A stretch of DNA of 64,000 bases from assembly GCA_963675665.1 (NCBI GenBank), contig OY776510.1, forward strand, positions 2,112,001 through 2,176,000, written 5' to 3'. Positions 27,782-56,780 of this stretch are shown here, piece by piece. The notes beneath the pieces were generated by a model that was given only the letters and a program-made list of their open reading frames with translations, ran no database searches and had not been told where the DNA came from. Source of the DNA: Spirochaetia bacterium (GTDB lineage: Bacteria > Spirochaetota > Spirochaetia > UBA9216). The position numbers were made by a program, and so were the translations under genes. How positions within the stretch are numbered: position 1 is the first letter of the stretch; each line of letters starts with the position of its first letter.

Positions 27782-29128
27782 ATGTATGATCTTATAGTTA
27801 TTGGAGCCGGTCCGGCAGGTTATATTGCCGCCGAGAGAGCCGGTCATATGGGTAAAAAAGTCCTCATTGTTGAAAAGGAATATCTGGGCGGAGTATGCAC
27901 CAATTACGGTTGCATACCGACAAAAAGCCTTCTGAATTCGGCAAAGCATTTTGTTTACGGACAGGAAGCCGGGCAGTTCGGCGTTCACTTCGACAATCCC
28001 CGTTTTGACTTTCCCGAGGCAATGGCCTGGAAGAACGAAACGGTTGAAACTCTCAGAAAGGGAATTGCCTTTCTGATGAAACAGGGCAAGGTTGATGTTG
28101 TAATGGGCGAGGCGCAGTTTGAGTCTGCAGGCCCCGGTAATAAAAAGATAAATGTTAACGGCACAGCCTATGAAGGCAGCAATCTTCTGATTGCTACCGG
28201 TTCCACGGCCTTTGTCCCGCCGATACCGGGCGCTGACGGTCCCAATGTAGTAACAAACCGCGAGATCCTGAATCTTGAAAAGCTTCCGAAAAAGCTTGCA
28301 GTAATAGGCGGCGGAGTAATCGGCGTTGAATTTGCTTCATTTTTCAGCAGTGTAGGCGTTGAAGTTCATGTAGTGGAGATGATGGATGAGATATGCCCGA
28401 TGATGGACGGCGAAGCGGCTGAACTTCTTCGAAAGAAAATGAGCAAGGTTGATTTTCGGCTGGGCGCCAGGGTTACTGAAGTCACTGCCGACGGTGTTAA
28501 GTTTGAGAAAGACGGTTCTGAATCATTTATCAAATCTGATCTTGTTCTTGTGTCGGTAGGCAGAAAGCCAATTACAACCGGACTTGAAAACCTGGGCCTT
28601 GATATCGGCCGGGGCGGAATTGTAGTGGATGAAAGAATGCGAACTAATTTTCCAGGAGTATATGCTGCAGGTGATGTTACAGGCAAATCGCTTCTGGCCC
28701 ATTCAGCTTCCCGAATGGCCGAAGTAGCCGTAATGGATATGTTCGGCAATAACAAGGAAGGAAACCGTATGCGGTACAACGCAGTGCCCTGGGCAGTTTA
28801 TACCAACCCGGAGGTTGCCGGCTGCGGGATGACCGACACTGAAGCCAAAGAAGCAGGCTTCAATGTTAAATCGGCTTCAATGCAGATGCGCGCAAACGGA
28901 AGGTTTCTGGCTGAACACGGAAAGGACGCAGGTTTCTGCAAGGTTGTTTCAGATGCTGATACGGGGCTTGTCCTCGGAGTTCATATGATAGGGGCTGTAT
29001 GTTCCGAAATGATTGGAACAGCTGCGACCTTTATTGAGGCTGAGCTCAGGGTTCAGGACATAAGGGAGATAATTTTCCCGCATCCGTCTGTCTCCGAGAT
29101 CATTAAAGATGTTTGCTGGATAATATAA
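27782..29128 (+). CDS. lpdA: dihydrolipoyl dehydrogenase (E3)
   Basis: GAGPAG, GGVCTNYGCIPTK, GGGVIG, HPSVSE. Confidence 0.95.
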   Translation: MYDLIVIGAGPAGYIAAERAGHMGKKVLIVEKEYLGGVCTNYGCIPTKSLLNSAKHFVYGQEAGQFGVHFDNPRFDFPEAMAWKNETVETLRKGIAFLMKQGKVDVVMGEAQFESAGPGNKKINVNGTAYEGSNLLIATGSTAFVPPIPGADGPNVVTNREILNLEKLPKKLAVIGGGVIGVEFASFFSSVGVEVHVVEMMDEICPMMDGEAAELLRKKMSKVDFRLGARVTEVTADGVKFEKDGSESFIKSDLVLVSVGRKPITTGLENLGLDIGRGGIVVDERMRTNFPGVYAAGDVTGKSLLAHSASRMAEVAVMDMFGNNKEGNRMRYNAVPWAVYTNPEVAGCGMTDTEAKEAGFNVKSASMQMRANGRFLAEHGKDAGFCKVVSDADTGLVLGVHMIGAVCSEMIGTAATFIEAELRVQDIREIIFPHPSVSEIIKDVCWII

Positions 29129-29280
29129 ATTGTACTTCCGTGTACAATTTATATTTTCTGTTTGAGAGATTTTCTCTCTCAAACAGCTCCAGCTTATCGC
29201 CCTTCCGGGGCGAGAGATATTGGAAGTTGAACAAGCAAAGCGTGTCAAACTTTACCATAATAATCCGCCTTCCGGGGCGA
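29122..29280 (+). repeat. intercistronic multi-hairpin element (C-B-A-B'-A')
   Basis: AATATAAATTGTAC-TTCCGT-GTACAATTTATATT; CTGTTTGAGAGA-TTTTC-TCTCTCAAACAG; TCGCC(C)-TTCCGG-GGCGA; AAGTTGAACA..TGTCAAACTT; CGCC-TTCCGG-GGCG. Confidence 0.75.
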
Positions 29281-29305
29281 AGATGTAATTTATAGGAGAT
29301 AAATT

Positions 29306-31765
29306 ATGCCTAAATCATTACCAATTGATCCTGTTGAAATCAGGAAGCCGGGAACAATAAAAATTAACGATATTCCCGTAAATAAATATAAACCCGATTT
29401 TAAGAAAGAAGAAAAGCTCTACGGAAAGGAAGGCCTTCTCGGTGTTTATTACGATATGCTGATTATCCGTGAGTTCGAGACCATGCTCGACCAGATCAAA
29501 AAGGAAGGTTCGTATCAGGGAATGGAGTATAACCATAAGGGTCCTGCTCACCTTTCCGCCGGCCAGGAGTCGGCTTCTGTAGGCCAGAGTCTTGTCCTCG
29601 ATACGGACGACTTTATTTTCGGTTCACACCGAAGCCACGGAGAAATCCTTGCCAAGTGTTTTTCCGCCATCAAAAAGCTCGATGAAAAAACACTCACCGG
29701 CGTGATGGAAAGCTTTTTCGGCGGGGAGACCCTGTCCGTTGTTGAAAAACACAACAAGGGAGAGAATGTAAAAGATCTTGCGGAGAACTTCGTTCTTTAC
29801 GGCGCCCTTGCAGAAATTTTTGCGCGCGCACAGGGCTTTAACAGGGGGCTCGGCGGATCTATGCATACATTTTTTGCGCCGTTCGGTTCAATGCCGAATA
29901 ACGCTATTGTAGGCGGAAGCGGAGATATTTCGGTAGGTTCCGCTTTATACAAGCGTGTAAACCGGAAACCCGGAATCGTTATTGCCAATATAGGCGACGC
30001 CTCGCTTGCATGCGGACCTGTCTGGGAAGGAATTGTGTTCGCTGCAATGGACCAGTACAGGACCCTCTGGGACAAGGAAATAGGCGGAGCGCCCCCGGTT
30101 ATGATAAATGCATTCAACAACTTTTACGGTATGGGCGGCCAGCCGATGGGTGAGACCATGGGTTATCGTGAAGCGGCACGTCTCGGCGCGGGTGTTAATC
30201 CGGAAGGCATGCATTCCGAGCGGGTGGACGGTTTTAATCCGCTGGCGGTTGCCGACGCAGTTTCCAGGAAGAAGAAGCTGCTTCTTGAAGGCAAGGGCCC
30301 TGTATTCATGGATACGATAACATACCGCCTTTCGGGTCACTCTCCTTCGGACACTTCAACATACCGGACCAAGGAAGAGTTTGCAGCTTTCAAGGAAAAT
30401 GATGCGCTTGACGGTTACGAGAAATATCTTAAAGAGAACGGCGTGCTTGACGACAGTACCGCCGAAGCAATGAAGGCCAGGGTTGCCAAAAAGATAGGCG
30501 ATACAATGCGCATAGCAATTGATGATTCGATATCACCGCATGTTGACGGCAGGTTTATAGAATCGGTTATGTTCTCGAATGAGCAGGCTGAAAAGCTTGA
30601 CGATCGTGAACCGGAAGTCCTGATGCCTCTTGAAGAAAACCCCAGGGTTAAGGCTAATGCACGCAAGGCGCGGTATGCATTCGATGAAAGCGGCAAACAG
30701 CTTCCGGCGTCAAAACAGTTTGTTTACAGAGACGCTCTGTTTGAAGCGGCCATTCACGGTTTCTACACGGACCCGACCCTGATTGCCTACGGCGAAGATA
30801 ACCGCGACTGGGGCGGGGCGTTCGCCGTGTACCGCGGCCTGACCGAAGCCCTTCCTTACCACCGTCTGTTTAACTCGCCGATTTCGGAGGCTTCCATAGT
30901 CGGTACGGGCGTCGGATATGCAATGAGCGGCGGTCGTGCAATGGTTGAACTGATGTACTGCGACTTCCTCGGCCGCGCCGGAGACGAGATATTCAACCAG
31001 ATGCCGAAATGGCAGGCAATGTCGGGCGGCGAGCTGAAGATGCCGCTGGTGCTGAGGGTGTCCGTCGGAAACAAGTACGGGGCACAGCACTCCCAGGACT
31101 GGTCGGCCCTTGTCGCTCATATTCCCGGACTAAAGGTAATGTTCCCGGCAACACCGTATGATGCAAAGGGCATGCTCAACCTTGCTCTGAAAAGTACCGA
31201 TCCGGTAGTGTTCTTTGAAAGCCAGAAACTGTACGGTATCGGTGAAGAATTCGAGAAGAACGGGGTTCCCGAGGGGTATTATGAAATACCTGAAGGCGAG
31301 CCTGCTGTTAAAAGAGAAGGCAAGGACATTACTATTATCACAATAGGCGCTACCTTGTATGAAGCAGTTAAGGCTGCGGACATTCTTGAGGAAAAATACG
31401 GTATGAGCGCCGAAGTTATTGATTTGAGATTTATCAACCCGCTTAACTATGATCCGATTATTGAATCCGTCAAAAAAACCGGCAAGGTACTTCTTTCCTC
31501 CGACGCGAGTGAGCGGGGTTCATACCTGCATAATGTTGCTTCAAACATCAGCCGCCTTGCGTTTGATTACCTTGACGCGCCGCCGGTTGTTGTTGGCTCC
31601 AAAAACTGGATAACTCCGCCGGCGGAAATGGAAGAGCTGTTTTTCCCGAGAGCTTCATGGCTGATTGATGCAATCAGTGAAAACATAATACCGCTTGAAG
31701 GACATGCCGGCACTTCAATTCAGACGGACGGAGAGGTTATCCGTCAGAATCGAGAGGGAGTATGA
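29306..31765 (+). CDS. ThDP-dependent dehydrogenase E1, alpha-beta fusion (PDH/acetoin dehydrogenase superfamily)
   Basis: HLSAGQE, HRSHG, GLGGSMH, GDAS...NN, YRLSGHS; beta part GED, SPISE, GAQHSQ, DAKGML. Confidence 0.92.
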
Positions 31766-33099
31766 GAAGCCGGAAAATCGATAACAAACTTATAGATAAA
31801 CTTAATGCAGGCAGCAGGGACGAACGCGTCTCTGCTGCTTTTAATGTTGGAGAGCAGATAGAAAAACTTGGTCTCTATTCGGACAAGACCGACGAAGTTA
31901 ACAACCATATCCATACGACATTTTCATTCAGTCCCTATTCCCCGTCTATGGCTGCATTTATGGCAAGGTCTGCCGGTTTGAAGGCCGCCGGAAGCGTCGA
32001 CCACGACAGTATAGGCGCTGCAAAAGAGATGGTTGAAGCCTGTAAGGCTTTCGGAATCGGATCTACAGTCGGCTGCGAGCTTAGGGTAAATTTTAACGGG
32101 ACCTTTCTTGAAGAGAAGAAAATCAATAATCCCGATATGGTTAACAGCGGGTATATTGTATTTCACGGAGTGCCGCACGACAGGATTGATGAACTTGCGC
32201 ACTGGCTGAAACCTGTTAATGAGGAACGCAACAGAAGAAACAGGGCCCAGGTTGAAAAGCTCAATTCGCTTTTACCGCAGGGAATTATTACGCCTCTTGA
32301 TTTTGATCGGGATGTGTATTCCATATCCGAGGCTGATAACGGCGGGGCTGTTACGGAGCGGCATATTCTTTACGCGCTGTCGGTCAGAATTGTTGAGAGT
32401 TTCGGCAAAGGCAGGGGGACGGTTGATTTTATCTCTGAAAAGCTTGGAATCAATGTGCCTGACAGGGTGAAGGGATATTTGCTTGACGGTGAGAACCCCC
32501 ATTATTTGTATGATCTGCTCGGAATACTTAAAAGCAATATTGTACCCAGGTTTTATATGATGCCCAAAGAGGCTGAAAGTCCCAACGCCAGGGCCGCGGT
32601 TGATTTTGCCAACAGTATCGGCGCTATTCCGGCTTATTCATATCTCGGCGATGTTGCCGAAAGTCCTACCGGCGATAAAAAGGCCGAGAAATTTGAGGAT
32701 GAATATCTTGATGAAATGTTTCCGATCATTAAGGACCTGGGATTCAGGGCCGTAACCTATATGCCTCCCCGCAATACTCTTGAACAGCTGAAACGGGTTA
32801 TGAATCTCTGTGAAAAATATGATCTAATGCAGATAAGCGGGGTCGATATCAATTCTTCAAGGCAAGTCTTTAATTGTCCCGAGATTATGCTTCCTGAATT
32901 TTCTCATTTGATTGCTTCAACCTGGGCTTTGATAGCGCATGAGCATCTTGCTTCACTGGACTCTTCGCTTGCTTTGTTCAGCCGGACCGGCAGGTTTGCT
33001 GCCCTGTCTCTTGAGGAAAGACTGAAAAAATATACCGGGTTCGGACTTGCAATGGATTTGAAGAACCCTGAAAGAATTATCGATCTTGTACAGGATTAA
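31762..33099 (+). CDS. PHP-domain putative metal-dependent phosphoesterase
   Basis: [14 protein letters not shown]; C-terminal SGVDIN in place of GSDxH. Confidence 0.8.
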
Positions 33100-33113
33100 A
33101 GGAGAGTTTTTTA

Positions 33114-34148
33114 ATGAACAAACTTGATATTGCGCCCCTGCTTCGGGGGCTTACTTTTAACGGGGAAACCGGGGCTGTAATCCGCTGTAAGTCCGAAGAA
33201 ATAAAGGATGATAATACTCTTTCACTCACCGCTGAGAAAATTACCGGGCTAAAGGCTTTGCCGGAAGGAACCTCCTGTGTATCGGTAGAGGGTTTCGGAA
33301 CCTTCGAAATAAAACCGGCAAGGCGGATAGCTGTAGTTACCGGCGGGGCCCAGGGGTTTGGAGCAGGTCTTGTAGAGAAGCTTGTTGAAAAAGACATTTT
33401 TGTTTTTATTGCGGATATGAACCTGAAAGGGGCTGAGAAATTCGCGGATGAGCTTAACAGCCGGTATAAAGGCAAAACAGCTTCCGCGGTTGAGGTTAAT
33501 GTTGCCGATGAAGCTTCGGTTGAACGGATGATAAACGAAGTTGTATTTTCTGCCGGCGGACTGGATATTTTGGTAAACAATGCCGGGGTGCTTAAGGCCG
33601 GAAGCGTAAAAGAGCAGGCTCTTTCCGATTTTGAATTTGTTACCCGGGTGAATTATACCGGTTATTTTCTGTGCGTGAAATATGCATCGAGGGTAATGGC
33701 CGCCCAGAACAGGGCAAGTGTGGGTGCCGGTTTGGGCAGATACTACACCGATATTATTCAGATTAATTCCAAATCAGGGCTCCAGGGCTCAAACAAAAAC
33801 GGGGCCTACGCCGGAGGAAAGTTCGGCGGCATAGGGCTGACCCAGAGCTTTGCCATGGAGCTGGTTGAAGACAATATCAAGGTGAATTCCATATGTCCGG
33901 GGAATTTTTTCGAAGGACCTCTCTGGGCTGATCCGGAGAGAGGTCTTTTTGTGCAGTATCTGAATGCCGGGAAGGTTCCCGGGGCTAAAACCATTGATGA
34001 TGTAAAAGCTTTTTATGAGGCCAAGGTGCCGATGGGCCGTGGATGCAATCCCGACGACATAGCGAAAGCATTGTTTTACCTTGTAGCTCAGAAGTATGAA
34101 ACGGGACAGGCCCTGCCGGTAACAGGCGGCCAGATTATGCTTAAATAA
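33114..34148 (+). CDS. SDR, sorbitol-6-phosphate dehydrogenase (SrlD)-like, with a ~70-aa N-terminal extension
   Basis: TGGAQGFG, NNAG, IQINSKSG..GS.KN..Y...KFGGIGLTQS. Confidence 0.82.
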   Translation: MNKLDIAPLLRGLTFNGETGAVIRCKSEEIKDDNTLSLTAEKITGLKALPEGTSCVSVEGFGTFEIKPARRIAVVTGGAQGFGAGLVEKLVEKDIFVFIADMNLKGAEKFADELNSRYKGKTASAVEVNVADEASVERMINEVVFSAGGLDILVNNAGVLKAGSVKEQALSDFEFVTRVNYTGYFLCVKYASRVMAAQNRASVGAGLGRYYTDIIQINSKSGLQGSNKNGAYAGGKFGGIGLTQSFAMELVEDNIKVNSICPGNFFEGPLWADPERGLFVQYLNAGKVPGAKTIDDVKAFYEAKVPMGRGCNPDDIAKALFYLVAQKYETGQALPVTGGQIMLK

Positions 34149-34194
34149 GTTTGCTGATGCAAACTCCATTTCACCAAACCGCCTTCCATGGCGG
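34148..34194 (+). repeat. intercistronic copy of the hairpin element (B-A)
   Basis: AGTTTGC-TGAT-GCAAACT(CCA) ... CCGCC-TTCCAT-GGCGG. Confidence 0.78.
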
Positions 34195-34218
34195 CCAGGA
34201 TTTAATTAGGAGATAATT

Positions 34219-35634
34219 ATGAAGAAATATATTGCTGTAGATCTTGGAGCCTCAAACGGGAGGGTTATAGTCGGAAACCTTGAAGAGATAGAGGTTGTTG
34301 CACGATTCCCCAGCCGACCGGTACGTATCAAGGACTCAATCTACTGGGATTTCCTGGGACTTATCGCTGATATCCGTGAGGGGTTGAAAACAGCATTTAA
34401 AAAGTACGGTGATGAAATCGTCAGTATCGGTTTTGATACCTGGGGGGTGGATTATGCGCTGCTGGACAAGAATGGAGATTTGATCGGAAATCCTTACCAT
34501 TACCGGGATAGTCGAAATGACGGGATGGTGGAGAAGTTTTTTGAAATTGTCCCCAAAGAAGAAGTGTATAATGAAACAGGCATCCAGTTCATGCAGATAA
34601 ATACTCTGTATCAGATTTTTGCCCACTACAGGAATTCACCGGAAATCGTAAAGGCCGCAAGACATTTTCTTACCGTGCCGGATTTATTGAACTACTGGCT
34701 GACCGGAGTGATGAAGAACGAGTTTTCCGAGGCTACTACAACCCAGTTGTATAATCCGGTGAAACGGAAATGGTCTGAAAAGCTGATAAAAGCAGCAGGA
34801 TTTAATCCGGACATTTTCAAGGAAGTAGTGCTTCCCGGCACAGTGATAGGGCCTCTTCTTCCTGTGGAAGCAAAAAAACTTGGTGCGGGCGGGCATGTGG
34901 TGGTGACGACGGCGGCCTGTCATGATACGGCTTCGGCAGTTGCTGCAATGCCTGCAGTCTCCGGAGGAAATCCGGCATTTCTGAGTTCAGGCACATGGTC
35001 TCTGCTTGGAATCGAACTTGATCAGCCGGCAATAAACGAGCTCAGTTTTAAATACGATTTTACAAATGAAGGCGGACGCGAAGGAACTATTACGTATCTT
35101 AAAAACATTATGGGCCTCTGGATTATCCAGGAATGCAAGGCCTTCTGGGATAAAAACGGAGAAGAATACAGCTGGCCGGAAATTGTTCAGATGGCCGAAG
35201 ATGCCGGTTCTTTAGATGCCAGAATAGATGTTGATGATGCTTTATTCTTTGATTCCAATCTTACCAGCTCGGGAATGCCGCTCAGGATACAGAATTACTG
35301 CAGGGAACACGGCCGAACGGTGCCGGAGACTGTTGCCGAAATTTCAGCCTGTGTTTTCAGAAGCCTTGCTGATAAGTATGCTGTAACGGTTAAAATGCTT
35401 AAAGAGAGTACCGGCTCAAAGATTGACAGTCTGTATATTATAGGAGGCGGATGCCAGAATGATTTGCTTAACCGATGGACTGCCGAAGCTGTCAGGATTC
35501 CGGTTTTTGCCGGGCCTGTAGAGGCTACTGCTATCGGGAATATTCTTGTCCAGGCAATTTCAGCAGGAGATGTTTCTTCATATGAAGAAGGCCGCAGGAT
35601 AATTGCGGAAAATTTTGAAGTAAAGAGGTACTGA
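34219..35634 (+). CDS. rhamnulokinase-like FGGY sugar kinase
   Basis: AVDLGASNGR, DTWGVDY, HDTASA, SSGTWSL, NIMGLW, GPVEATAIGN. Confidence 0.88.
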   Translation: MKKYIAVDLGASNGRVIVGNLEEIEVVARFPSRPVRIKDSIYWDFLGLIADIREGLKTAFKKYGDEIVSIGFDTWGVDYALLDKNGDLIGNPYHYRDSRNDGMVEKFFEIVPKEEVYNETGIQFMQINTLYQIFAHYRNSPEIVKAARHFLTVPDLLNYWLTGVMKNEFSEATTTQLYNPVKRKWSEKLIKAAGFNPDIFKEVVLPGTVIGPLLPVEAKKLGAGGHVVVTTAACHDTASAVAAMPAVSGGNPAFLSSGTWSLLGIELDQPAINELSFKYDFTNEGGREGTITYLKNIMGLWIIQECKAFWDKNGEEYSWPEIVQMAEDAGSLDARIDVDDALFFDSNLTSSGMPLRIQNYCREHGRTVPETVAEISACVFRSLADKYAVTVKMLKESTGSKIDSLYIIGGGCQNDLLNRWTAEAVRIPVFAGPVEATAIGNILVQAISAGDVSSYEEGRRIIAENFEVKRY

Positions 35635-35678
35635 AAGCTTTAACATTTGGTAACCCATTTTGAAGTTTCCGGCCTCTG

Positions 35679-36941: not shown

Positions 36942-37039
36942 TTAGATAAATTCTCCATTAGGGATATTAATATTTTCGGGGAAATCGCACTGCTGTTTAA
37001 GAATATGTTAGCGCAAACATAATATGATATTCACTGTAT

Positions 37040-37939: not shown

Positions 37940-38120
37940 GTTTTCTCCTGCGGAATATTAACACAAAAATTATGGATTATTCAGTTTCTTTGATGGTATG
38001 GAGCTGATAATACGCTGATAAATAATTTGTAAGAATGTAGATATTTACCCTTGATTTCATAATCCCGATACATATCATTAACACTGTAGATTTAAAATTA
38101 ATTTAAAACGGAGAAACACT

Positions 38121-46757: not shown

Positions 46758-47047
46758 GATCCGGTTTCATCAGTAAAATAAAATACGGTTTTAATGAACT
46801 CAAAGAAATTATTATTACAGCTAATCGCAGTAAAGCTGTCGGAATGATAGAGTATGAAACCGGAGAGCTCGAAAATATTTTCAGCCTTCTTGTAATGGGC
46901 TCTTTTATCGGCATGCCGTCGCCTCCGGCGCATATAAGCCTGCAGCTGATGCCGCTTATGGAACGTGAAATGAAGATTATGTTTAATAAAGTCGGCACGG
47001 CAAACGATGCCCTTGCCGAGATTATCGAAACGCTGGGAGAACCATGA
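46754..47047 (+). CDS. small protein resembling the cstA-ArsA-associated ('cory-CC-star'-like) family, without the terminal CC
   Basis: ELENIFSLLVMGSFIGMPSPP..ISLQLMPLM; ATGA overlaps on both sides. Confidence 0.7.
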   Translation: MRSGFISKIKYGFNELKEIIITANRSKAVGMIEYETGELENIFSLLVMGSFIGMPSPPAHISLQLMPLMEREMKIMFNKVGTANDALAEIIETLGEP

Positions 47048-47955: not shown

Positions 47956-47986
47956 GGGAAATATAGATTTTTCCCCTCCCGACTGC

Positions 47987-49849
47987 TCAATTCAGTATTC
48001 GCACTTTTTCGGTATTGCTTAGAAAGTCTGCCAGTTTTTCCGGATTGATAATCGGCAGCTGTTCAAGATGACTGCGCAGGATTTTTACCGAATTAAATCT
48101 TTTCCGGTATACAAAGTTGTACAGCTCCGAATTAAAAAGTTCCATTATCTCCGTTATTGTTGCTGCATGCCCGGTTTCTTTATTTTCCATTTTATCAAAA
48201 TGCGGAATAATGTTGTTTGCACTGTTTAAGGTCAGCATCCCGCTTCGATCGATCGCAAACACAAGCCTGTTTGAGATAAATCTGTAAACAAGCTTTTCAG
48301 TTGAGCGGTACTTCCACTCAGGTGCAACCTGCTGAAATCGTTCCGGATTGAACTGAATAAACTGGCCGGGCAAACTGATTCTGCCGGGCAATATATTGCT
48401 GCCTGTGATTACAGGTTCAAAACCGGGATTTTTTTCTGCAGACAGATATTTTGAATTATCTCCGGTTACAATTCCAAGGGCCCAGTCTGCATTGTCTTTT
48501 AAAGTAAAATGGGGGATTGCATAAAGGCGGTCGATAATTTTTGCATCGTCGGAATTCAGGTTGATGCTGAAGGTGAAATCGTTGTTTACGGAAAAATTTT
48601 TACCGTTATGATTTGACAGCAGATGTTTATTTCCGGCGTTCTTAATGAGTTCGACGGTTACAACCGGGGTATATACGCCTTTAAAAGCCCGCCCGTATCC
48701 GGTAATATCTGTGAGCCTGCAGTTTTTCAATACAAGTCTTCTAATATCATCATGTCGTTTCACATTGGTAATTGCTTCCGGCAGAACAATCGAAACTACT
48801 CCGCCGGGTTTTACAAGGTTCAGGCTTTTATCAATAAAAAATGAAAAACTTTCGCCGCTCTTTATCTCCGGATATCTCTGTTCCAGAATTTGCTTTTTCC
48901 CGTCTGTACAGGCTCCCCATGGGGGATTGGTAATTGCTGCGTCGAAAGGCGTGGACTCGTGAGTGCTTTGTGTCCCGGGAAAATGATCCATAAGCAGACT
49001 GTCTGCGCAGTATATGCGCGGCTCTGCATCAATCCCCGGATGTTGGAGAATTATATTTGTTCCGGCTGTAAATACTGCAATGGCATCGATGTCTGTGCCA
49101 AAAGCGTTTTCGGGGCTGCCGCCGGCTTTTATAAACGAAAGAAGGAACTGTCCTGTGCCGCAGCAGGGATCGATAATTCTGATATCCGCCGGAGGGCTTC
49201 CCGTCGGCGCCAATTGCCTGAGGGCGGAACTGACCATGGCGTCGGCTATTTCGGGCGGAGTATAAAACGAACCGGAAACTGACCTGTCTCCGCGTTGCCG
49301 CAAAGCCTGATATATAATTCCGGCAATATCAAGCTCAGCCGGGGACGCCGAAGGAAGTTTGAGCGACATTATGTTTGTGAACGGGTCAAGCAGTTTGTCG
49401 GTTCCGGATGACGGCATAAAGTTTTTTAAATGAGTAGTAATAACCGAAGAGCTGTAATCTTCGGTTCTGAACTGAAGCAGCCGGGCAAGATTACAGGAGT
49501 TTTCGGAGGAATAGCTAATAAGCCCGGCTTCGATAAACAGTCTGAGAGAAAGAAGAAACATCAGGTCGGCTGTCTCCATTTCTATTTTAAGCAGAGATTC
49601 ACATGCCTTTTTAAGTATTCCGTTCGGGAGAATTGAACCGACGCAATGTTTTTTATTGGCACGACGGTTCAGCCTGTTAATTTCGCCTTTTTTTATCCTG
49701 CCGAGTAAAGATTCAACTTCCCTGCGTGCATAGGTACGCGAACCGCCCGAATTCAAAAGGCCGTGTTTCTCCCAGTTTGCTACACTGGCGGTTGAGATCC
49801 CAAGCAGTTCTGCAGTTTCGGTGAGTGTCAGTACTTCTCTATTATTCAT
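47987..49849 (-). CDS. N6-adenine DNA methyltransferase (gamma, TaqI-like TRD) with an N-terminal HTH
   Basis: GSFYTP, DPCCGTGQFL, NPPW, LGIVTGDN, KLVYRFIS...TLNSAN; N-terminal TAELLGISTASVANW. Confidence 0.88.
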   Translation of the reverse strand: MNNREVLTLTETAELLGISTASVANWEKHGLLNSGGSRTYARREVESLLGRIKKGEINRLNRRANKKHCVGSILPNGILKKACESLLKIEMETADLMFLLSLRLFIEAGLISYSSENSCNLARLLQFRTEDYSSSVITTHLKNFMPSSGTDKLLDPFTNIMSLKLPSASPAELDIAGIIYQALRQRGDRSVSGSFYTPPEIADAMVSSALRQLAPTGSPPADIRIIDPCCGTGQFLLSFIKAGGSPENAFGTDIDAIAVFTAGTNIILQHPGIDAEPRIYCADSLLMDHFPGTQSTHESTPFDAAITNPPWGACTDGKKQILEQRYPEIKSGESFSFFIDKSLNLVKPGGVVSIVLPEAITNVKRHDDIRRLVLKNCRLTDITGYGRAFKGVYTPVVTVELIKNAGNKHLLSNHNGKNFSVNNDFTFSINLNSDDAKIIDRLYAIPHFTLKDNADWALGIVTGDNSKYLSAEKNPGFEPVITGSNILPGRISLPGQFIQFNPERFQQVAPEWKYRSTEKLVYRFISNRLVFAIDRSGMLTLNSANNIIPHFDKMENKETGHAATITEIMELFNSELYNFVYRKRFNSVKILRSHLEQLPIINPEKLADFLSNTEKVRILN

Positions 49850-49915
49850 AACTGATTCAGGATTTTAGCATGTATGAGAATATTAGAACAGAAGAAGGCC
49901 AGTCACCGGTTTGCA

Positions 49916-51358
49916 TCAGGGACGGAAACTGCTGATTTCTCCATCGGCGCGAACATGGGTGATTAGCATGCTGTGTTCAGCGAGATCGATTGTTAAGATT
50001 GCAATTTCAGAATTACCGTTGCGCCTGATAACAAGGGTTTTGTTGCCTTTGTTTTTATCAATTGAGAATTCCCCGGAAAAAGCAGAACAGCTCATGCGGA
50101 ATTCCATCAGCTGCTTCAGGCGCATGACGACCGGGCGTTCCGAATCAGCTTTGATTTCAGCAGTTGTATAATTATGCCGGTTGATATCACGTCCGTTTCG
50201 GGTTTTCTCAACAAGTTCAAGGTCATTGCGTCCGGCGAGCATTCCTACATAGTATACCTGCGGTATTCCGGGAGCAAAGAACTGAATTGCGCGGGCCATA
50301 ATGTAGGCGTCATCATTCTCGCCCATCGCGCTGTAATATGTACAGTTTATCTGATAAATATCAAGGTTGTGGTATTCGGAGGTTGAATATTTGCGGTTAA
50401 TATTAGAACCCCTGCTGTATAATTTTTCAACAGTGAATGCCGTTTGTTCTTCAGTAAGCAGTCCTGCAGCGTCTACTACACCGATACCGTCATGTGTATC
50501 AAGAGTTGTGTACTGTTTCCGGGGGCATATTGTCAGCCAGTATTTAAGCGGGCTGAAGTCTGAAGCATACCAGGAATAGAGAAGCAGGAGGGGGAGCGCA
50601 AAATCGTAAACATAATACCCTTTGCCGGCCATTTTAAGCTGGATTGTATAATGTTCATGCATTTCAGGCAGAAGATCAATTTTAAAAATCTCAGCTATTG
50701 CCTTGAGCCTGTCAAGTGTGTTCCAGATATCGGGCTCAACCATGAAGCAGCTTGTACCGCGCTTTTTTGAAATATATCCGACTGCGTCGAGCCTGACAGT
50801 TTTTATTCCGCCTGCTGCAAGATGTTTTAATGTTTCTTCAAAGAGCTTGAGACCGGCGGATGAAGCAATATCAATATCAATCTGTTCTTCGCTGAATGTG
50901 CACCATATCTTTTTTTCATTTCCTGATTTAAACCTTATTGTCAGCCAGGGCTCGGTGGGCTGTCGTCTGTAGATTTTTGTAATCTCTTCAGGGGTAGGGC
51001 CTTCAGCGCCGAAAATCTGTTCGACCGGCAGGAAAAGATCTGCATATTCCGATTTGTTTTCCTTATCTATCCAGTCTCTGAAATAAACTGATTTTCTGGA
51101 AATATGGTTAACCATAAAGTCGGCCATTATTTCATAATCGGCGCCGAGTTCGGAAAGAGATTCCCAGCTGCCGAACGCCGGATCAATTTCCGAGTACGTA
51201 ATCGGTGAAAACCCCCTGTCTCCCGACGACGGGAAGAACGGGAGCAGGTGTATGCCCGAGATGCATCCCGGGAAATATATATTCAGGCAGGAGCGAAGGG
51301 CTTTTATATCGCCTCCGAAGCTGTCAGCATAGGTGATTAATACTACTCCGTTTTTCAT
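49916..51358 (-). CDS. gtfA: sucrose phosphorylase (GH13_18)
   Basis: LITYAD, HLLPFFPSSGDRGF, RLDAVGY, PEMH, THDGIG, NLDIYQIN. Confidence 0.85.
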   Translation of the reverse strand: MKNGVVLITYADSFGGDIKALRSCLNIYFPGCISGIHLLPFFPSSGDRGFSPITYSEIDPAFGSWESLSELGADYEIMADFMVNHISRKSVYFRDWIDKENKSEYADLFLPVEQIFGAEGPTPEEITKIYRRQPTEPWLTIRFKSGNEKKIWCTFSEEQIDIDIASSAGLKLFEETLKHLAAGGIKTVRLDAVGYISKKRGTSCFMVEPDIWNTLDRLKAIAEIFKIDLLPEMHEHYTIQLKMAGKGYYVYDFALPLLLLYSWYASDFSPLKYWLTICPRKQYTTLDTHDGIGVVDAAGLLTEEQTAFTVEKLYSRGSNINRKYSTSEYHNLDIYQINCTYYSAMGENDDAYIMARAIQFFAPGIPQVYYVGMLAGRNDLELVEKTRNGRDINRHNYTTAEIKADSERPVVMRLKQLMEFRMSCSAFSGEFSIDKNKGNKTLVIRRNGNSEIAILTIDLAEHSMLITHVRADGEISSFRP

Positions 51359-51381
51359 TCATTACTCCGTAAACAAAACCC

Positions 51382-51499
51382 GGCCAGGGACGACCCAGAC
51401 AATACATTCTGGCCATGGATGGCCATAGCTTAAAATGCTGAAGTTTGCAAAACATTGCAAACTTCAAAATGAAATTGGACATGGATGTCCAATTTCATT
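51382..51499 (-). repeat. intercistronic copy of the hairpin element (C-B-A-A')
   Basis: mRNA sense: AATGAAATTGGAC-ATCCAT-GTCCAATTTCATT; TGAAGTTTGCAA-TGTT-TTGCAAACTTCA; TGGCC-ATCCAT-GGCCA; GGTC-GTCCCT-GGCC. Confidence 0.85.
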
Positions 51500-52589
51500 A
51501 CCCTTTAACAGATCCCGCCATCAGTCCCCGGACAAAGAACCTCTGGAGGCCGAAGAAGACGACAAGCGGAATTATCATACTCATGAAAGCTCCCGCGGTC
51601 AGGATGTGCCAGTCCTGTCCCTTTTCTCCGACCATGGCGGCCAGTGCGGCTGTGACAACCCTGTTCTTGTCGCCGAGAAAAACAAGAGCAACAAGGTAAT
51701 CGTTCCATACCCACAGGAACTGGAAGATTGCAAAGCTTGCCAAAGCAGGAATCGAGAGCGGAAGCACAAGCTGGACGAAAGTAACGAATGGAGTTGCGCC
51801 GTCGAGATAGGCTGATTCAAAGATATCTCTGGGCAGGTTGCTTATATAGTTATAAAGTAGATAAACAGCAAGCGGAAGCCCGAACCCGGTATGGGCCAGC
51901 CACATTCCAAGATAGGTTCCGTTCAGTCCCCAGCTGGTATAATCTCTGAGAATGGGAATAAGAGCTATCTGAAGCGGAACTACAAGCAGAGCTACAACCA
52001 TTATGAAAAGCGGTTTGCGTCCCGGGAAATCCATCCATGCAAAAGCGTATGCGGCAAAAGCGGCAATGAGTATGGGTATTACTGTTGCGGGAATACTTAC
52101 TGCGATGGAATTCAGTACGGCGTCGGCAAAGTTGTTCCCCTGTCTGGTTATGGTATTTCCCTGAGCGTCCTTGAACGTAATGGTTCCGGCCGACAGAACG
52201 TCTTTGTAATTCTGCAAGGTAAGGTTGGCTCCGAAGCCCACCCATTTCTCTTCGAATACCTCTATTTTCCTTGAACGCTTGTTGCCGTACCATTGAAGAG
52301 TACGGCCTTCGGACACTTCAATTCCTTCGCGCCAATCCTGGAAAGAAGCAGTCACACCTTCGATTTCAATCGGTTGATTGGGATCTGTTTCCGCCGGCAG
52401 TTCGAATTCATCGGATTTCACCGTGTCCTTGTGCGGCAGAACGGTCCACCAGCCTGAAGAATATATATCAGTTGAATCACGCCAGGATGTTATAAAAACA
52501 CCCAGGGTAGGAATAGTCCAGGCTGCTACAATTATTATCAATACAATGGTTACTACCGGATTGCTTTTCTTTTGCTCTTTTTTACTCAT
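51498..52589 (-). CDS. carbohydrate ABC permease (AglG-like)
   Basis: AAYAFAWMDFPGR, PLQIAL, ESAYLDGA, QFLWVWND. Confidence 0.92.
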   Translation of the reverse strand: MSKKEQKKSNPVVTIVLIIIVAAWTIPTLGVFITSWRDSTDIYSSGWWTVLPHKDTVKSDEFELPAETDPNQPIEIEGVTASFQDWREGIEVSEGRTLQWYGNKRSRKIEVFEEKWVGFGANLTLQNYKDVLSAGTITFKDAQGNTITRQGNNFADAVLNSIAVSIPATVIPILIAAFAAYAFAWMDFPGRKPLFIMVVALLVVPLQIALIPILRDYTSWGLNGTYLGMWLAHTGFGLPLAVYLLYNYISNLPRDIFESAYLDGATPFVTFVQLVLPLSIPALASFAIFQFLWVWNDYLVALVFLGDKNRVVTAALAAMVGEKGQDWHILTAGAFMSMIIPLVVFFGLQRFFVRGLMAGSVKG

Positions 52590-53668
52590 TTCAAAGTCCT
52601 CCTTCCCCTGAATTCTCTGAGGTTGTACATCAGTACAGGTACAATTACTACCAGAAGAACAATTGCAATCGCTGAGGCCTGGCCGGAGTGGCCATAAGTA
52701 AACTGCCGCAGGTAAAATTCGTTCGCGATAACATTGGTTCCGAAATTACCTCCCGTCATAACCCTGACAATATCAAAAAGTTTAAGGCTGAAGATCAGTA
52801 TTGTTGTTGTAACCGTGATTAATGTCGGCATGATATACGGGATTGTAATTCTGAAAAAGATTATAAAAGAATTTGCCCCGTCGACGCGGGCCGCTTCATT
52901 TATTTCGCCCGGAATCGCCTTGATTGCTGAAGACAGTATAACCATTGCATATCCGGTCTGAAGCCAAATCATTATCACTATAAGAAAAAAGTTGTTCCAG
53001 AACGGGATTAAAAGCCATGGCTGTGCTTCTCCTCCGAATGATGTGACTATTGCATTTAATAAACCTATTTCAGTAACATTGAATCCTTCGCCTTTATAAG
53101 CATACATAAACTTCCATATTACGCCTGCGCCTACAAAGGATATTGCCATAGGCATAAAGATTAATGATTTAAAAAGCTTTTCGTGACGGCTTTTATCTGC
53201 CAGCACCGCGATAACCAGGCCCATTATTACACAGAAAGCAGTGCCGAAGATCATCCACAACAGATTGTTTCTAAAAGCTTCAAGCATAATCGGGTCGGTA
53301 AAAGCGAATTTAAAATTTGCAAGTCCTACAAATTTCATTGCGTGCGCATCCATAAGGCTCAGCCTGAGAGTTCTGATTGTAGGAACAACCAATGCCCAGA
53401 AAAGCAGGATGACCGCCGGGCCGGCAAAAACGATTGCAACTGCTACCGATCTGATTCTTCGCGGCATTGTTTCGGCGACAGCATTAAGCGTGAAAAAAAG
53501 AAGCGCTGCGCTGCAGAGCCCCCAGATAACAGCAAACAGGGTCATAAGGGTTTTAATTTCCTGCATCATCTGAAGCAGAAAAAAACCGCCGATGAGAACA
53601 ACCGCCGTAATTACCACGAGCCCTGCCAGGACAGCCGGATTCCTTTTAGAGTCAATGGTCATGCTCAT
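52586..53668 (-). CDS. carbohydrate ABC permease (AglF-like)
   Basis: PMAISFVGA, QTGYAMV, EAARVDGA; start after AGGAGG. Confidence 0.92.
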   Translation of the reverse strand: MSMTIDSKRNPAVLAGLVVITAVVLIGGFFLLQMMQEIKTLMTLFAVIWGLCSAALLFFTLNAVAETMPRRIRSVAVAIVFAGPAVILLFWALVVPTIRTLRLSLMDAHAMKFVGLANFKFAFTDPIMLEAFRNNLLWMIFGTAFCVIMGLVIAVLADKSRHEKLFKSLIFMPMAISFVGAGVIWKFMYAYKGEGFNVTEIGLLNAIVTSFGGEAQPWLLIPFWNNFFLIVIMIWLQTGYAMVILSSAIKAIPGEINEAARVDGANSFIIFFRITIPYIMPTLITVTTTILIFSLKLFDIVRVMTGGNFGTNVIANEFYLRQFTYGHSGQASAIAIVLLVVIVPVLMYNLREFRGRRTLK

Positions 53669-53700
53669 AGAAACCTCCTTGGGTTTTTGCATTTAAAGAA

Positions 53701-53735
53701 ACGGGAACAGAACCCGAAAGTGTCTCTGTTCCCGT
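53701..53735 (-). terminator. stem-loop after the binding-protein gene
   Basis: ACGGGAACAG...CTGTTCCCGT. Confidence 0.6.
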
Positions 53736-53758
53736 CGTAAAAAAGTCTGTGATGCTTA

Positions 53759-55090
53759 TTATTTAGGCCATGAAGCGTCGATAGCTTTAAGGGCTTCGTC
53801 AAGTGTTTTGGAGCCTGAAACATAAGCTGTCATTTCTTTCCAGAAAGAACCTGCTCCGACCTGTCCGGGCATAAGATCCGAACCGTCGAACCGAACTGAC
53901 GTTGCATTCTGAATTACTTCCGCAACCTTTCTGTCTACTTCATTGGTGTACCAGCTGAGTTCCGAGTCTTTGTGGGGAGAAATGGCTCCGCCTGCTTTGA
54001 CCCATCCTTCAACTGATGCTCCGGTAGCGAAATACTGCATAACCATTCTTACTTCAGGTCTGTCGTTGAACATCGCATAGATATCGCCGGCAACAAGTAC
54101 AGGGCGCCCGTACTCTGCTTTTACGCTCGGCAGGTAGAAGAAGTCGTAGTCTTTGCCGGCTACAACATTGTCGGGGAAGAATGAGGTAACGAAGTTGCCC
54201 TGTTTGTGCAGCCATGCCTTGGGCGGTTTTTCAAACATAACCTTCGGCGCATCTCCGAAACTGGTTGTCGATATGCTCTTTCTGCCTCCGTAGACCATTC
54301 CGTCGGGAAACCAGATATTGGCTACTGTTTCAATGGCTTTACGTACTTCAGGGCTGTTGAATTTAAGATCGCCTTCAACCCATCGGTCGTAGTTTTCAAG
54401 GCTGGTTGTTCTGAGCATCATTTCTTCAACCCAGTCAGTCATGGGCCAGCCGGTTGCAGCGCCTGATTCGATTCCTACACACCAGGGAGTATCGCCGTCG
54501 GCCATGATTGTTTTCTGAAGCGCTTCGAGTTCCGCCCATGTTTTCGGTACTTTATATCCTGCTGCGTCGAATTCGGCTTTGTTATACCATACAAGTGATT
54601 TACCGTTTACACGGCCCCAGATACCGGCCATAATCGGTCCGTCTGGGGAATCCATTGTAGCCATATCAAGCCAGCTCTGAATGTAGTTTGATTTAACTTT
54701 TCCCATGTCCAGTGCTTTATTTAAATCGACAACATAGCCCTTTGCTACAAAGTTTTTCAGCAGTCCGGGTTGTGGAAAGTCGGCTATATCAGGCGGGTTG
54801 CCGCCCTCAATGGAAATACCGATGGAAGCTTCGAATTCCTTTGAGCCTTCATACTGAATGTCGATGCCCGTCATTTCTTCAAACGGTTTTACAGCGTTCT
54901 CGAATTTAACAGCATCGCTGTCTACGAACGGACCTGCCATTCTGACTACCGTGCCGCGCACTTCGGCATACGGATCATCAGCGGCCGCTTTCGTGTCGGC
55001 TGCTGCAGCGGGTTCTTCCTGCTTTCCACCTGCAAACGCGAAAGACGCAACAAGCAGTATGCAAAGCAATACTAACAGTGTTTTTTTCAT
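53759..55090 (-). CDS. alpha-glucoside ABC substrate-binding protein (AglE-like)
   Basis: GNPPDIA.FPQPG, KSLVWY, GIESGAATGWP.TDW, FDGSDLMP. Confidence 0.9.
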   Translation of the reverse strand: MKKTLLVLLCILLVASFAFAGGKQEEPAAAADTKAAADDPYAEVRGTVVRMAGPFVDSDAVKFENAVKPFEEMTGIDIQYEGSKEFEASIGISIEGGNPPDIADFPQPGLLKNFVAKGYVVDLNKALDMGKVKSNYIQSWLDMATMDSPDGPIMAGIWGRVNGKSLVWYNKAEFDAAGYKVPKTWAELEALQKTIMADGDTPWCVGIESGAATGWPMTDWVEEMMLRTTSLENYDRWVEGDLKFNSPEVRKAIETVANIWFPDGMVYGGRKSISTTSFGDAPKVMFEKPPKAWLHKQGNFVTSFFPDNVVAGKDYDFFYLPSVKAEYGRPVLVAGDIYAMFNDRPEVRMVMQYFATGASVEGWVKAGGAISPHKDSELSWYTNEVDRKVAEVIQNATSVRFDGSDLMPGQVGAGSFWKEMTAYVSGSKTLDEALKAIDASWPK

Positions 55091-55154
55091 ATAAATCTCC
55101 TCTTTTACGGCCATCCGGCCGCAATTTTACTTTTTTACTGAAACCATACCGGTT

Positions 55155-56168
55155 TCAGGTTGTTTTTCTCTCAATAAGGCCGACCTGAAGGTTTACCTTT
55201 TGAATGGTTTCAACTTTTCCGGACATTCTTTCAAGCATCAGTCCTGCTGCAATTCTTCCGGAATCCGTTAAATGCTGCGAAATGGTTGAGAGTTCCATCC
55301 AGTCGGCGGCTTCGATATCGTCAAAACCGAGTATAGCCAGTTCTTCCGGGATGCTGACACCGTATTCCCTGGCAGCTTTCATGACCCCGATTGCGTGCAG
55401 ATCGGACATGGCGAATATCGCGCGCGGCCTGTGTCCCTCAGCCAGAAATTTACTGAATTTTTCATATGCATCAGGGACGGTTGTGGTTGATTCTATTATC
55501 AGATCAGGATCAAGTTCATATCCGTTGTTTCTGAGTGTTTCGCGGAATCCCTGCAGTCTGATCTCGGAGGGGTGGCAGCTGTAAGGGATGTCTTTTGTCT
55601 GGTCGCCGAAGAATGCACAGGGCAGGTAGTTCTTTTTCAGAAAAAGTTCCGCTGCAAGCTGGCCTCCCCGGAAACTGTCGGCAAGGACTCTTGAGTAGTT
55701 TTCATCATCCGATTCAATCATTATGACATTGAGATCCGACGCGTTCAGAATACGGTGCTGTTCGGCGGTCAGGTGTACGGACATCAGAATTAAGCCGTCT
55801 ATTCTTCTGGTGAACGGCACCGATGTAAGATATTCATCAAGCTGCTCGGGGGTTTCAATCGTATAAACAATTACCTCGAAGTTGGCTTCTCTAAGGGGAG
55901 GTATCATTCCGCTGAGCCTTGTTACGAAGGAAGGCGCCGGGAAGAAAGGCGTCAGAACCCCGATTCTGCCTACTGAACGCCTGGCGCGGGTTCCTGCATT
56001 CCCCTGCGGAATGTAATCGAGTTTTTCCATTGCATCGGCGATCCTCGCCCTGGTACTTTCTTTTACATTATCTGAATTATTGAGGAATCTTGAAACCGTT
56101 GTAATACTTACACCTGCTTCCTGGGCTACATCGTAGATTGTCATTCTTTCTGCATTAACTTTTGCCAT
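55155..56168 (-). CDS. LacI family transcriptional regulator
   Basis: TIYDVAQEAGVSITTVSR, GFDDI. Confidence 0.95.
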   Translation of the reverse strand: MAKVNAERMTIYDVAQEAGVSITTVSRFLNNSDNVKESTRARIADAMEKLDYIPQGNAGTRARRSVGRIGVLTPFFPAPSFVTRLSGMIPPLREANFEVIVYTIETPEQLDEYLTSVPFTRRIDGLILMSVHLTAEQHRILNASDLNVIMIESDDENYSRVLADSFRGGQLAAELFLKKNYLPCAFFGDQTKDIPYSCHPSEIRLQGFRETLRNNGYELDPDLIIESTTTVPDAYEKFSKFLAEGHRPRAIFAMSDLHAIGVMKAAREYGVSIPEELAILGFDDIEAADWMELSTISQHLTDSGRIAAGLMLERMSGKVETIQKVNLQVGLIERKTT

Positions 56169-56195
56169 AATTTTCTTCTTGTTTGAAAGAACTTA

Positions 56196-56211
56196 ATGAA
56201 AGTACTTTCAT
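56196..56211. promoter_or_regulatory. LacI-type operator O1
   Basis: Perfect palindrome ATGAAAGTACTTTCAT, 28 nt upstream of lacI. Confidence 0.75.
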
Positions 56212-56330
56212 ATAAATACAGGATAAACCCGAAAATAGTCAATTGTCAAATGAAAATTTTCATGAAAGTGTTGAAAAGTCCAATTATACGCTGTTTGCAT
56301 GAGTTTTGAAGGAAAAGGAAGGTTAATTTA

Positions 56331-56346
56331 ATGAAAGAGCTTTCAT
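56331..56346. promoter_or_regulatory. LacI-type operator O2
   Basis: Near-perfect palindrome ATGAAAGAGCTTTCAT (one mismatched pair), 135 bp from O1. Confidence 0.7.
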
Positions 56347-56601
56347 TGAATTAAGAGAAGTCAGGATGGAGTATCTGTATATTTAATTCAACAGTTCCGT
56401 TGAACAGGAAAAGCGGTCTTCAGCCGGAATCCAGGTTTTACTTACCCGGGTATTTATATCTTTACAGCGGAATTCTGTTCAGGTAATGGTATATAGACTC
56501 TCATATAAATAAAAAAATAACTATAACAAATAAAAAACATGTCAAAATTTTGAAAAACAAAGAAAAAAATCTATAAATTAACATAAAACAAAATTTATAA
56601 C

Positions 56602-56630
56602 TTGACAACAACTGAAAGGATAGATAAGCT
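56602..56630 (+). promoter_or_regulatory. sigma70 promoter of the aldehyde dehydrogenase-LIV operon
   Basis: TTGACA-17-TAAGCT with A-tract-rich DNA upstream. Confidence 0.55.
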
Positions 56631-56697
56631 GATTTATAAGGTATGCTGCTGATTTTTGATGGGTAAAAATTACAGTTGCTGACAGTACCAGGAGGAG

Positions 56698-56780
56698 TAA
56701 TAAAACATCATGGACGATATTTTATTATTTTGAAGTTTGCATTCGCAAGCTTCTTCTCCAACAGCCGCCATTCACGGCGG
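56698..56780 (+). repeat. leader copy of the hairpin element (C-B-A)
   Basis: TAATAAAACATC-ATGGAC-GATATTTTATTA; GAAGTTTGC-ATTC-GCAAGCTTC; CCGCC-ATTCAC-GGCGG. Confidence 0.78.

Follow-up and report, generated by a model that had tools for sequence, protein, structure and literature searches.

A 64,000-nucleotide stretch of the genome of a Spirochaetia bacterium (GenBank assembly GCA_963675665.1, contig OY776510.1, positions 2,112,001 to 2,176,000 of the forward strand; hereafter, the window, with coordinates counted from its first base) contains several copies of an element that consists of three hairpins, denoted C, B and A, and typically sits between the stop codon of one gene and the start codon of the next. 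What is this element, and what could it do in such a position? The initial annotation took it for an unnamed cis-acting RNA module. We are highly confident, judging from the matches described below, that it is TD-2 read in the TD-1 orientation and that it belongs to the spirochaete TD-1/TD-2 repeat family, which has been catalogued (Rfam RF03162) since the 2007 survey described below. We further propose that it is a modular repeat of the REP/BIME/BOX kind that would be co-transcribed with the operon and would serve as intercistronic punctuation. To the whole statement, family identity together with the punctuation role, we assign a probability of about 0.5; the punctuation function taken separately is a tentative proposal that falls somewhat short of even odds.

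The Rfam model of TD-2 matches the element on the opposite strand, and the three hairpins of the model are A, B and C in reverse. The match at 51409-51503 (+) scores 64.7 bits, over the gathering score of 48.7 bits; those at 29118-29213 (-) and 15426-15524 (+) score 46.2 and 42.6 bits, under this threshold; the site at 34133-34195 scores only 14.4 bits; and the Rfam search of the copy at 56695-56781 returned no row for TD-1 or TD-2. One of the four copies reported in the initial annotation, therefore, passes the gathering score. The TD-2 model and the element have in common the fixed order of the three hairpins, the AUGGAU/ACGGAU hexaloops and the middle stem GAGUUU...AAACUC. None of the Rfam searches made here contained a row named TD-1; two of them each had one lower-scoring, overlapping and unnamed match from the same clan. 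In the sections of Weinberg et al. (2007, PMC1950547) that deal with these motifs, TD-1 (28 copies) and TD-2 (36 copies) are described as confined to Treponema denticola, covariation and modular stems are noted, and 7 of the TD-1 copies are reported to overlap reverse complements of TD-2, with the two 5'-most hairpins in common. TD-1 is said there to be "usually in a 5' regulatory configuration", and these sections assign no function to either motif. In full-text literature, this was the only paper found to name TD-1 or TD-2. The 5' configuration of TD-1 is also that of the element: each of the 17 best copies, taken from the window and its relatives, lies upstream of an open reading frame (ORF) on the same strand, with C and B 5'-most. 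The reverse-strand TD-2 matches, taken together with this part of the 2007 description, lead to the assignment of the element to TD-2 in the TD-1 orientation. The initial annotation, which called the module unnamed, had itself set a match to a described family against that claim, and the 64.7-bit TD-2 match is one.

The likeness to TD-1/TD-2 thus extends to the three hairpins, their loops, the B stem, the phylum and the variable, modular stems. The differences are threefold. First, Rfam models the other strand and annotates it as "Gene; sRNA". Second, the motifs of 2007 were, in the sections cited, those of T. denticola only, whereas here the element is found in a genome with ~44% G+C in the window and in termite-gut Treponema and Spirochaeta metagenome-assembled genomes (MAGs); with T. 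denticola at roughly 38% G+C, the window is unlikely to come from that species. Third, the Rfam model misses or barely sees two of the four copies, those in front of the aldehyde dehydrogenase and FGGY kinase genes. The family therefore reaches well beyond T. denticola, and it is the gene-sense strand rather than the annotated one that has a consistent context.

In the direction of the genes, the parts follow each other in the order C, U-rich joint, B, linker, A, U-rich stretch, UAGGAG, start codon. Hairpin C is long and AU-rich, with a 14-bp stem and a hexaloop WUCCNU closed by a C-G pair; in the window copies, it is joined to B through AUUUUG. Hairpin B has the conserved stem GRAGUUUGC/GCAAACUYC and a variable loop, and a linker of 10-20 nt that ends with AAC leads to hairpin A, which has a short GC stem. 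This AAC is kept across subfamilies. The loop consensus of A, C[WUCCNU]G, is identical to that of C: the closing C-G pair is present in 17 of 17 C hairpins and 15 of the 16 scored A hairpins, and UCC is found in all but one of the 17 C loops and in 11 of the 13 A loops that are distinct. The UCC loop of the initial annotation is missing from the copy in front of the aldehyde dehydrogenase gene, where neither the C nor the A loop contains it.

Four copies in the window reach up to a start codon, and we scored them with a sense-strand covariance model of our own, built from 7 copies. In the first (+), hairpin C (29122-29155; 14-bp AU-rich stem, loop UUCCGU, U-rich tail, -13.5 kcal/mol) carries the stop codon (29126-29128) of the lpdA-like gene in its 5' arm and is followed by hairpin B with the arms CUGUUUGAGAGA and UCUCUCAAACAG (29158-29186) and by hairpin A1 with a GC stem and a UCC loop (29197-29213). 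A duplicated module (29224-29281) consists of a degenerate B' (29224-29252) and A2 (29264-29281) and is itself matched by the model (29216-29281, 14.2 bits). The apparently element-borne ribosome-binding site (RBS) UUUAUAGGAG (29289-29298), a spacer and the E1 start codon, an ATG at 29306, occupy 29289-29308. The second copy (34146-34221, +; 29.6 bits), between an SDR gene and an FGGY kinase gene, is devoid of C: the SDR stop TAA (34146-34148) abuts B (34148-34165), which is followed by A with the loop UUCCAU (34179-34194), UAGGAG (34207-34212) and the kinase ATG at 34219. The third copy (51356-51500, -; 80.5 bits) runs from the TAA of an ABC permease gene (51500-51498) through C (51499-51468), B (51466-51439), A (51425-51410), a second A-like hairpin (51395-51382) and GGAG (51368-51365) to the ATG of a GH13, sucrose-phosphorylase-like gene at 51358. 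The fourth, the leader of the aldehyde dehydrogenase gene (56696-56805, +; 87 bits), contains C (56696-56729), B (56732-56753), A (56765-56780), UAGGAGG (56791-56797) and an ATG at 56803. It is this copy that departs from the loop consensus while keeping the architecture: its A loop is AUUCAC, and its C loop AUGGAC (56710-56715) is the reverse complement of the usual GUCCAU within a retained stem. From its sequence, this change looks like a flip between inverted arms, that is, an event at the DNA level. A weak match to the Rfam motif freshwater-2 over this leader (56735-56805, 15.5 bits against a threshold of 49.9) was treated as noise; that motif has a like layout, with two hairpins directly 5' of an AAGGAG RBS.

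Two further occurrences hold only some of the parts. A copy that consists of C and B alone (15436-15521, -; 34.9 bits) lies between divergent genes, with a promoter-like site on each side, and an array (25256-25537, -) begins with a full C (25502-25537), after which come 3.8 tandem units of 72 nt, each with a B hairpin and a short hairpin resembling C; the array adjoins a promoter-like site at +25544..25572. Our model detected no copies in the window besides those of the initial annotation, in which hairpins, order and position had been given correctly for the four copies as well as for the C+B copy (near 15457) and the array (near 25250).

The genes next to the element differ from copy to copy. 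According to Pfam matches, which agree with the gene names of the initial annotation, the first two copies lie in an operon with the order DeoR regulator, E2, E3/LpdA, element, fused E1, a gene without assignment, SDR, element, FGGY kinase; the third lies between the ABC permease and the GH13 enzyme, and the fourth between a divergent LacI gene and the aldehyde dehydrogenase gene. The relation to the genes is nevertheless fixed. In 15 of the 17 best copies, a same-strand upstream ORF ends between -33 and +21 nt from the first base of the element, the two exceptions being the aldehyde dehydrogenase leader, which lies in a divergent region, and L105, a locus from a related MAG with a flank of only 85 nt. 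The same-strand downstream ORF is present in all 17 (16 found by script and one, at 4869-4961 of the Treponema MAG contig L061, by separate inspection). As the initial annotation had noted for three copies, in copies 1 to 3 the first stem contains or touches the stop codon of the upstream gene. All TD-2 matches are antisense to the flanking genes: both intercistronic matches in the window, 9 of 9 in L061 and 4 of 4 in the UBA9216 loci. In the operons, one unit in the sense orientation fills the whole gap between two cistrons. The copies are presumably transcribed, given this position within operons. The orientation tracks transcription rather than replication because copies on both strands of the window follow the local gene direction within a single segment of monotonic GC skew, which rules out the replicated strand as its cause.

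The ribosome-binding site is, by all appearances, part of the repeat unit, including its U-rich context. The motif TAGGAG occurs within 25 nt 5' of only 4 of the 49 genes in the window, and three of these four are linked to the element; furthermore, AAUUCUUUAUAGGAGA after hairpin A is common to copies at different loci. The last A hairpin was said to stand at a fixed distance before the ATG, and this was borne out, the hairpin ending 22-26 nt before it in the four window copies. Among the best copies, the distances from the end of hairpin A to the start codon form two groups, 19-23 nt (the window, the Spirochaeta sp. UBA9216 loci and L107) and 8-16 nt (L061, where GGAG follows hairpin A almost immediately). 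Because the RBS would belong to the repeat unit, the fixed distance needs no regulatory explanation. The repeat unit would, then, span the interval from stop codon to start codon, Shine-Dalgarno (SD) sequence included.

Two other uses of this interval were considered and rejected. An ORF from an AUG at the 5' edge to the UAG of UAUAGGAG is visible by eye in L105 and L107; its frame is not conserved, since it closes after three codons in L042, the third window copy is in another frame and the lengths of the B loops differ by 2 nt. Hexamers resembling -35 and -10 boxes between B and A are spaced inconsistently (14-19 nt, by eye), and promoter scans listed no sites in the sense copies, which speaks against a conserved internal promoter. 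Nor is there a general rule of UCC-loop hairpins before start codons in the window: five strict hairpins of this kind were found against 2.2 in shuffled sequences, and three of the five are those of the element.

The element itself is clearly not a product of chance. The pattern of the C-B junction has 6 matches in the window against 0.00 expected, and the pattern GTTTG...CAAAC has 7 against 1.10. Folding z-scores range from -2.7 to -7.1, and the three hairpins are present in the minimum-energy structures. In the alignment of the 17 best copies, which was fitted to the model, 97.6% of the cells pair, compared to 70.2% after shuffling and 39-48% when the partners are slid by 1-3 columns, and changes on both sides are seen in 23 of 28 pairs (109 cells). 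An independent MAFFT/RNAalifold run on 15 copies yielded compensatory changes in 17 of 20 pairs. The observation that stem sequences vary while pairing is kept is, therefore, sound, as is the description of a dispersed, modular element of several hairpins that keeps a set orientation and place with respect to the genes.

What this pairing means is a separate matter. Selected RNA helices contain several per cent of G-U pairs and very few A-C pairs. A strand-symmetric stem finder applied to 110 distinct hairpins from 46 loci gave 1063 Watson-Crick pairs (~97% of 1099), 13 G-U, 16 A-C and 7 other pairs. Because an A-C pair on one strand is a G-U pair on the other, the 13:16 split (p = 0.71) favours neither strand, and a 4:1 excess of G-U is rejected on either strand (sense, p = 3e-5; antisense, p = 0.002). 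As G-U pairs do not outnumber A-C pairs and wobble pairs amount to ~1%, the covariation of the element is that of perfect DNA palindromes and alone is no evidence for RNA. Possible causes of such palindromes would be selection on both strands, selection for a DNA hairpin, or templated correction of quasi-palindromes at replication. In general, perfect-palindrome repeats can mimic RNA covariation, which calls for caution when motifs of this type are evaluated.

The distribution of the element was examined by scanning genome contigs for the C-B junction pattern, which returned at least 113 loci, mostly lone chance matches in unrelated genomes, with ~23 loci from spirochaete genomes among the matches listed. 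Eleven of these spirochaete loci were searched with Rfam and gave 13 TD-2 matches, 12 over the 48.7-bit threshold and one under it; nine of them fall within ~8.5 kb of the Treponema contig L061. Our sense-strand model gave 72 matches (E up to 10) in the 216 kb that comprise the window and the 23 listed spirochaete loci, compared to a single match (E up to 0.01) when the other 90 listed loci, each of which has the B pattern, were searched (999 kb); this match, in L113, is a C+B copy in an unclassified MAG. This difference indicates that, among the loci listed, the composite is specific to spirochaete-type genomes. A BLAST comparison of the window with all loci listed found no close relative of the window among them.

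Subfamilies of the element recur across these genomes. The copies in L105 and L107, which come from two MAGs and precede different downstream genes, share 91% identity as far as the start codon, and the fourth window copy is 73-75% identical to them, compared to 45-57% to the other window copies. Because the same subfamilies are found in different genomes at non-orthologous sites, the sequences point to recent spread by copying rather than to ancient conservation in place. Modularity is apparent as well, in the duplicated B-A module of the first copy, the array of 3.8 72-nt units and the copies with C and B only.

One rival reading is a purely selfish DNA repeat, the hairpins of which would serve as single-strand or cruciform DNA signals for a recombinase or for replication-linked copying, with no role for the RNA, and the orientation and position of which result from target preference combined with purifying selection. 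The predominance of Watson-Crick pairs, the near-identical units at non-orthologous loci in two genomes, the tandem module arrays, the flipped loop of the fourth copy and the density of the element in the prophage-like part of L061 (9 TD-2 matches in ~8.5 kb) all fit such an explanation. However, the usual marks of a mobile repeat were not found: there are no terminal inverted repeats, the ends being, by eye, direct SD-like motifs; cognate and non-cognate flanks are alike, with the longest common string averaging 5.75 and 5.41 nt, respectively (sd 1.1); and no transposase or RAYT domain is present among the 49 proteins of the window. The flank comparison also lends no support to an apparent target-site duplication around the SD, suggested by AGGAGGA at both ends of the fourth copy. 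Moreover, the strict sense orientation is hard to explain by tolerance alone, given that it is the one with a terminator-like hairpin, and so are the exact fit from stop to start and the conservation of loops relative to the genes. We consider selfishness as the full explanation unlikely, even if it deserves more weight than any of the alternatives that follow. The strict gene-sense orientation, the stop-to-start fit and the loops that read UCC in the direction of the gene instead point to a role at the transcript level or, otherwise, to an insertion rule directed by the transcript.

The punctuation that we propose would work as follows. Spread and upkeep of the element would most likely occur as perfect DNA palindromes, as for the REP/BIME, BOX, ERIC and Correia repeats, and the copies would then be transcribed together with the operon. 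Next to the stop codon, C and B would form a 3' hairpin barrier or a weak terminator for the upstream cistron, whereas A together with the strong SD would provide the downstream cistron with a protected 5' end and an insulated or unstructured start site; the net effect would be a shift in the expression ratio of the two adjoining genes. Family identity, structure, orientation, the abutment of stop codon and RBS, and the spread between genomes are observed directly; transcription and any effects on RNA stability, termination and translation are what these observations would lead us to expect. Compared with an intrinsic terminator, in which a U-tract comes straight after a stable stem-loop, the C hairpins have predicted energies from -6.6 to -23.8 kcal/mol and 4-6 U among the next 8 nt. 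Among the roles offered in the initial annotation, a domesticated REP-like element comes closest to this proposal. If it is correct, the repeat shapes operon stoichiometry in spirochaetes; in any case, such elements should not be labelled as novel riboswitch-like leaders in genome annotations.

Several observations weigh against the proposal. The lack of G-U enrichment counts against long-term selection for an RNA fold on either strand. The terminator scan did not list the C hairpins, which are too AU-rich for its GC rule, and the L061 copies have no U-tail behind C. The nine copies in L061 belong to one prophage-like operon and hence are not independent. The search for a mobilising enzyme (among the 49 window proteins), for terminal repeats and for target duplications came up empty. 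Finally, conservation of the C[WUCCNU]G loops hints at a specific ligand, and simple punctuation could do without one.

Known systems offer parallels on each side of the proposed punctuation. REP/BIME elements stabilise the upstream mRNA and, when close to the stop codon, lower the expression of the upstream gene. Like them, the element is a multicopy extragenic palindrome located at the ends of cistrons in apparent co-transcription and organised into modular mosaics. In contrast to REP/BIME, which alternate copies of a single hairpin, it combines three different hairpins in a fixed order and a strict gene-sense orientation and includes an RBS; the link of REP/BIME to RAYT (IS200/IS605-type) transposases has no counterpart among the proteins of the window. 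BOX of Streptococcus pneumoniae, ERIC and Correia/NEMIS are, similarly, modular (in the manner of boxA-B-C) or hairpin-forming intergenic repeats with variable numbers of modules; they are co-transcribed, affect mRNA stability depending on orientation and sometimes carry outward promoters, comparable to the promoter-like sites that adjoin the C+B copies. The element shows no sequence similarity to them, and no terminal inverted repeats or target duplications were found in it; the stop-to-start fit and the built-in SD are features of the element and not of these repeats. Miniature inverted-repeat transposable elements are set apart by terminal inverted repeats and target-site duplications. The 5' stem-loop or SD stabilisers and intercistronic hairpins of the ompA, ermC and aprE leaders and of the puf and malEFG operons have much the same layout of segmental mRNA stability, with a stable hairpin just 5' of a strong SD and further hairpins immediately past the stop codon of the upstream cistron; these, however, are single-locus features, whereas the element is a dispersed repeat family.

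There is also a bolder version, to which we give little credence: a new mobile "intercistronic cassette" that would bring along its own RBS and stop codons together with a terminator-like hairpin and two more hairpins, the loops of which would be identical and recognised by a protein. In operons and prophages of diverse spirochaetes, it would copy itself precisely into the junctions between stop and start codons, and it would do so with no linked transposase, terminal repeats or target duplications. Such a cassette, if real, would place adjoining genes under a single loop-binding factor and thereby rewire their relative expression.

The conserved loops also raise the prospect of a sequence-specific regulatory site in the RNA, with the C and A loops bound by a single (dimeric) RNA-binding protein or pairing with a GGA such as that of the SD, so that many operons would come under one post-transcriptional control. 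The loops and their closing C-G pairs are kept while the stems vary (17 of 17 for C, 15 of 16 scored for A), UCC recurs in most loops of both hairpins, and the AAC before A is conserved across subfamilies, all of which would be expected of a binding site. However, the genes next to the element are functionally unrelated (2-oxoacid dehydrogenase, sugar kinase, GH13 enzyme and aldehyde dehydrogenase in the window; phage-like genes in L061), and the fourth copy retains an intact architecture with neither UCC loop. As for a pseudoknot between loop and SD, one of the roles entertained in the initial annotation, the complementarity of UCC to GGA amounts to just 3 bp, and predicted folds contain no loop-SD pairing but place the SD in the loop of its own weak AU hairpin or leave it unpaired. 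We therefore regard such a common regulatory site as improbable.

It is very unlikely that the function resides on the TD-2 strand, in small RNAs or antisense transcripts with two C[ANGGAW]G hexaloops that would titrate CsrA. CsrA/RsmE binding sites contain GGA in an ANGGAN hexaloop closed by C-G, and on this strand both hairpin loops read CAUGGAUG or CACGGAUG, which would have the shape of such sites; the Rfam annotation as "Gene; sRNA" also agrees with this. Nonetheless, the strand is antisense to co-directional genes in all intercistronic copies, no promoter appears to drive it, with the promoter-like sites beside the C+B copies pointing away, and the counts of G-U and A-C pairs lend it no support.

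Integron attC sites or their relics, as in the T. denticola chromosomal integron, are brought to mind by the short, mostly uncharacterised genes of L061, between which single elements recur in one orientation, and can be practically dismissed. In attC sites, R'' and R' core sites (..AAC / GTT..) close one long bulged hairpin, and the arrays adjoin intI; the eight representative T. denticola attC sites in the supplement of PMC3607928 have GTCTAAC...GTTAGA ends and a single bulged hairpin that, by eye, is nothing like C, B and A; in the window, copies on both strands are surrounded by ordinary metabolic genes, and the 49 proteins encoded there include no integrase; and the material cited from PMC3607928 places the gain of the integron after the split of the termite-gut treponemes.

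In L061, the region 1-11500 appears to be prophage-like, with a head-tail adaptor, an NlpC/P60 tail-like protein, a D5-type primase and a majority of ORFs without a family assignment. The element occupies most of the gaps between genes in the first 10 kb, with 9 above-threshold TD-2 matches, all with the element in the gene-sense orientation.

Modules of the same kind occur in other arrangements. In L104 (199-346), the order is tRNA, C, B, secE, nusG, and in L092 (202-553), C+B lies between two tRNA genes; in both loci, the modules begin 3 nt past the tRNA genes and have C loops without UCC, resembling plain terminator or spacer hairpins. In the Spirochaetaceae MAG Gsp477_bin169 (L021, L023, L026, L029, L033, L079, L081 and L083), C+B is found inside a longer GC-rich repeat with the flanks GGGGGGCGCG...CGCCCCCC, spread over many short contigs, in a different composite of the same modules.

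The C+B copy at 15436-15521 is flanked divergently by TTGACA-16-CATAAT (-15456..15429, 11 of 12 consensus positions) and TTGACT-17-TATTAT (+15523..15551, 10/12), both among the best promoter-like sites in the 20 kb scanned. The site on the - strand ends 6 nt short of the ATG of a thioesterase gene at 15422, so that the thioesterase mRNA may be leaderless. The site next to the array, at +25544, is TTGACA-17-TACAAT (11/12). In both window cases, the latter spanning 25530-25572, UUCAUUAC-TTGAC(A/T) connects the C end to the outward -35 box, and L113 appears alike by eye at ~240-280 (TTAC-TTGACA-17-ATAATT). On this sequence pattern, one subfamily may carry, or adjoin, an outward promoter.

An ordinary terminator of this genome is exemplified at 11254-11314, where a GC-rich bidirectional structure (A-tract, GGCUGCC/GGCAGCC stem, U-tract) separates two convergent genes; this structure accounts for weak matches to the Rfam families STnc540 and STnc370 at the site. 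The ORF at 47987-49849 (-), which is unrelated to the element, contains an N6-DNA methylase domain, an Eco57I-type domain and a TaqI-like specificity domain and probably encodes a type IIG or type IIL restriction-modification enzyme.

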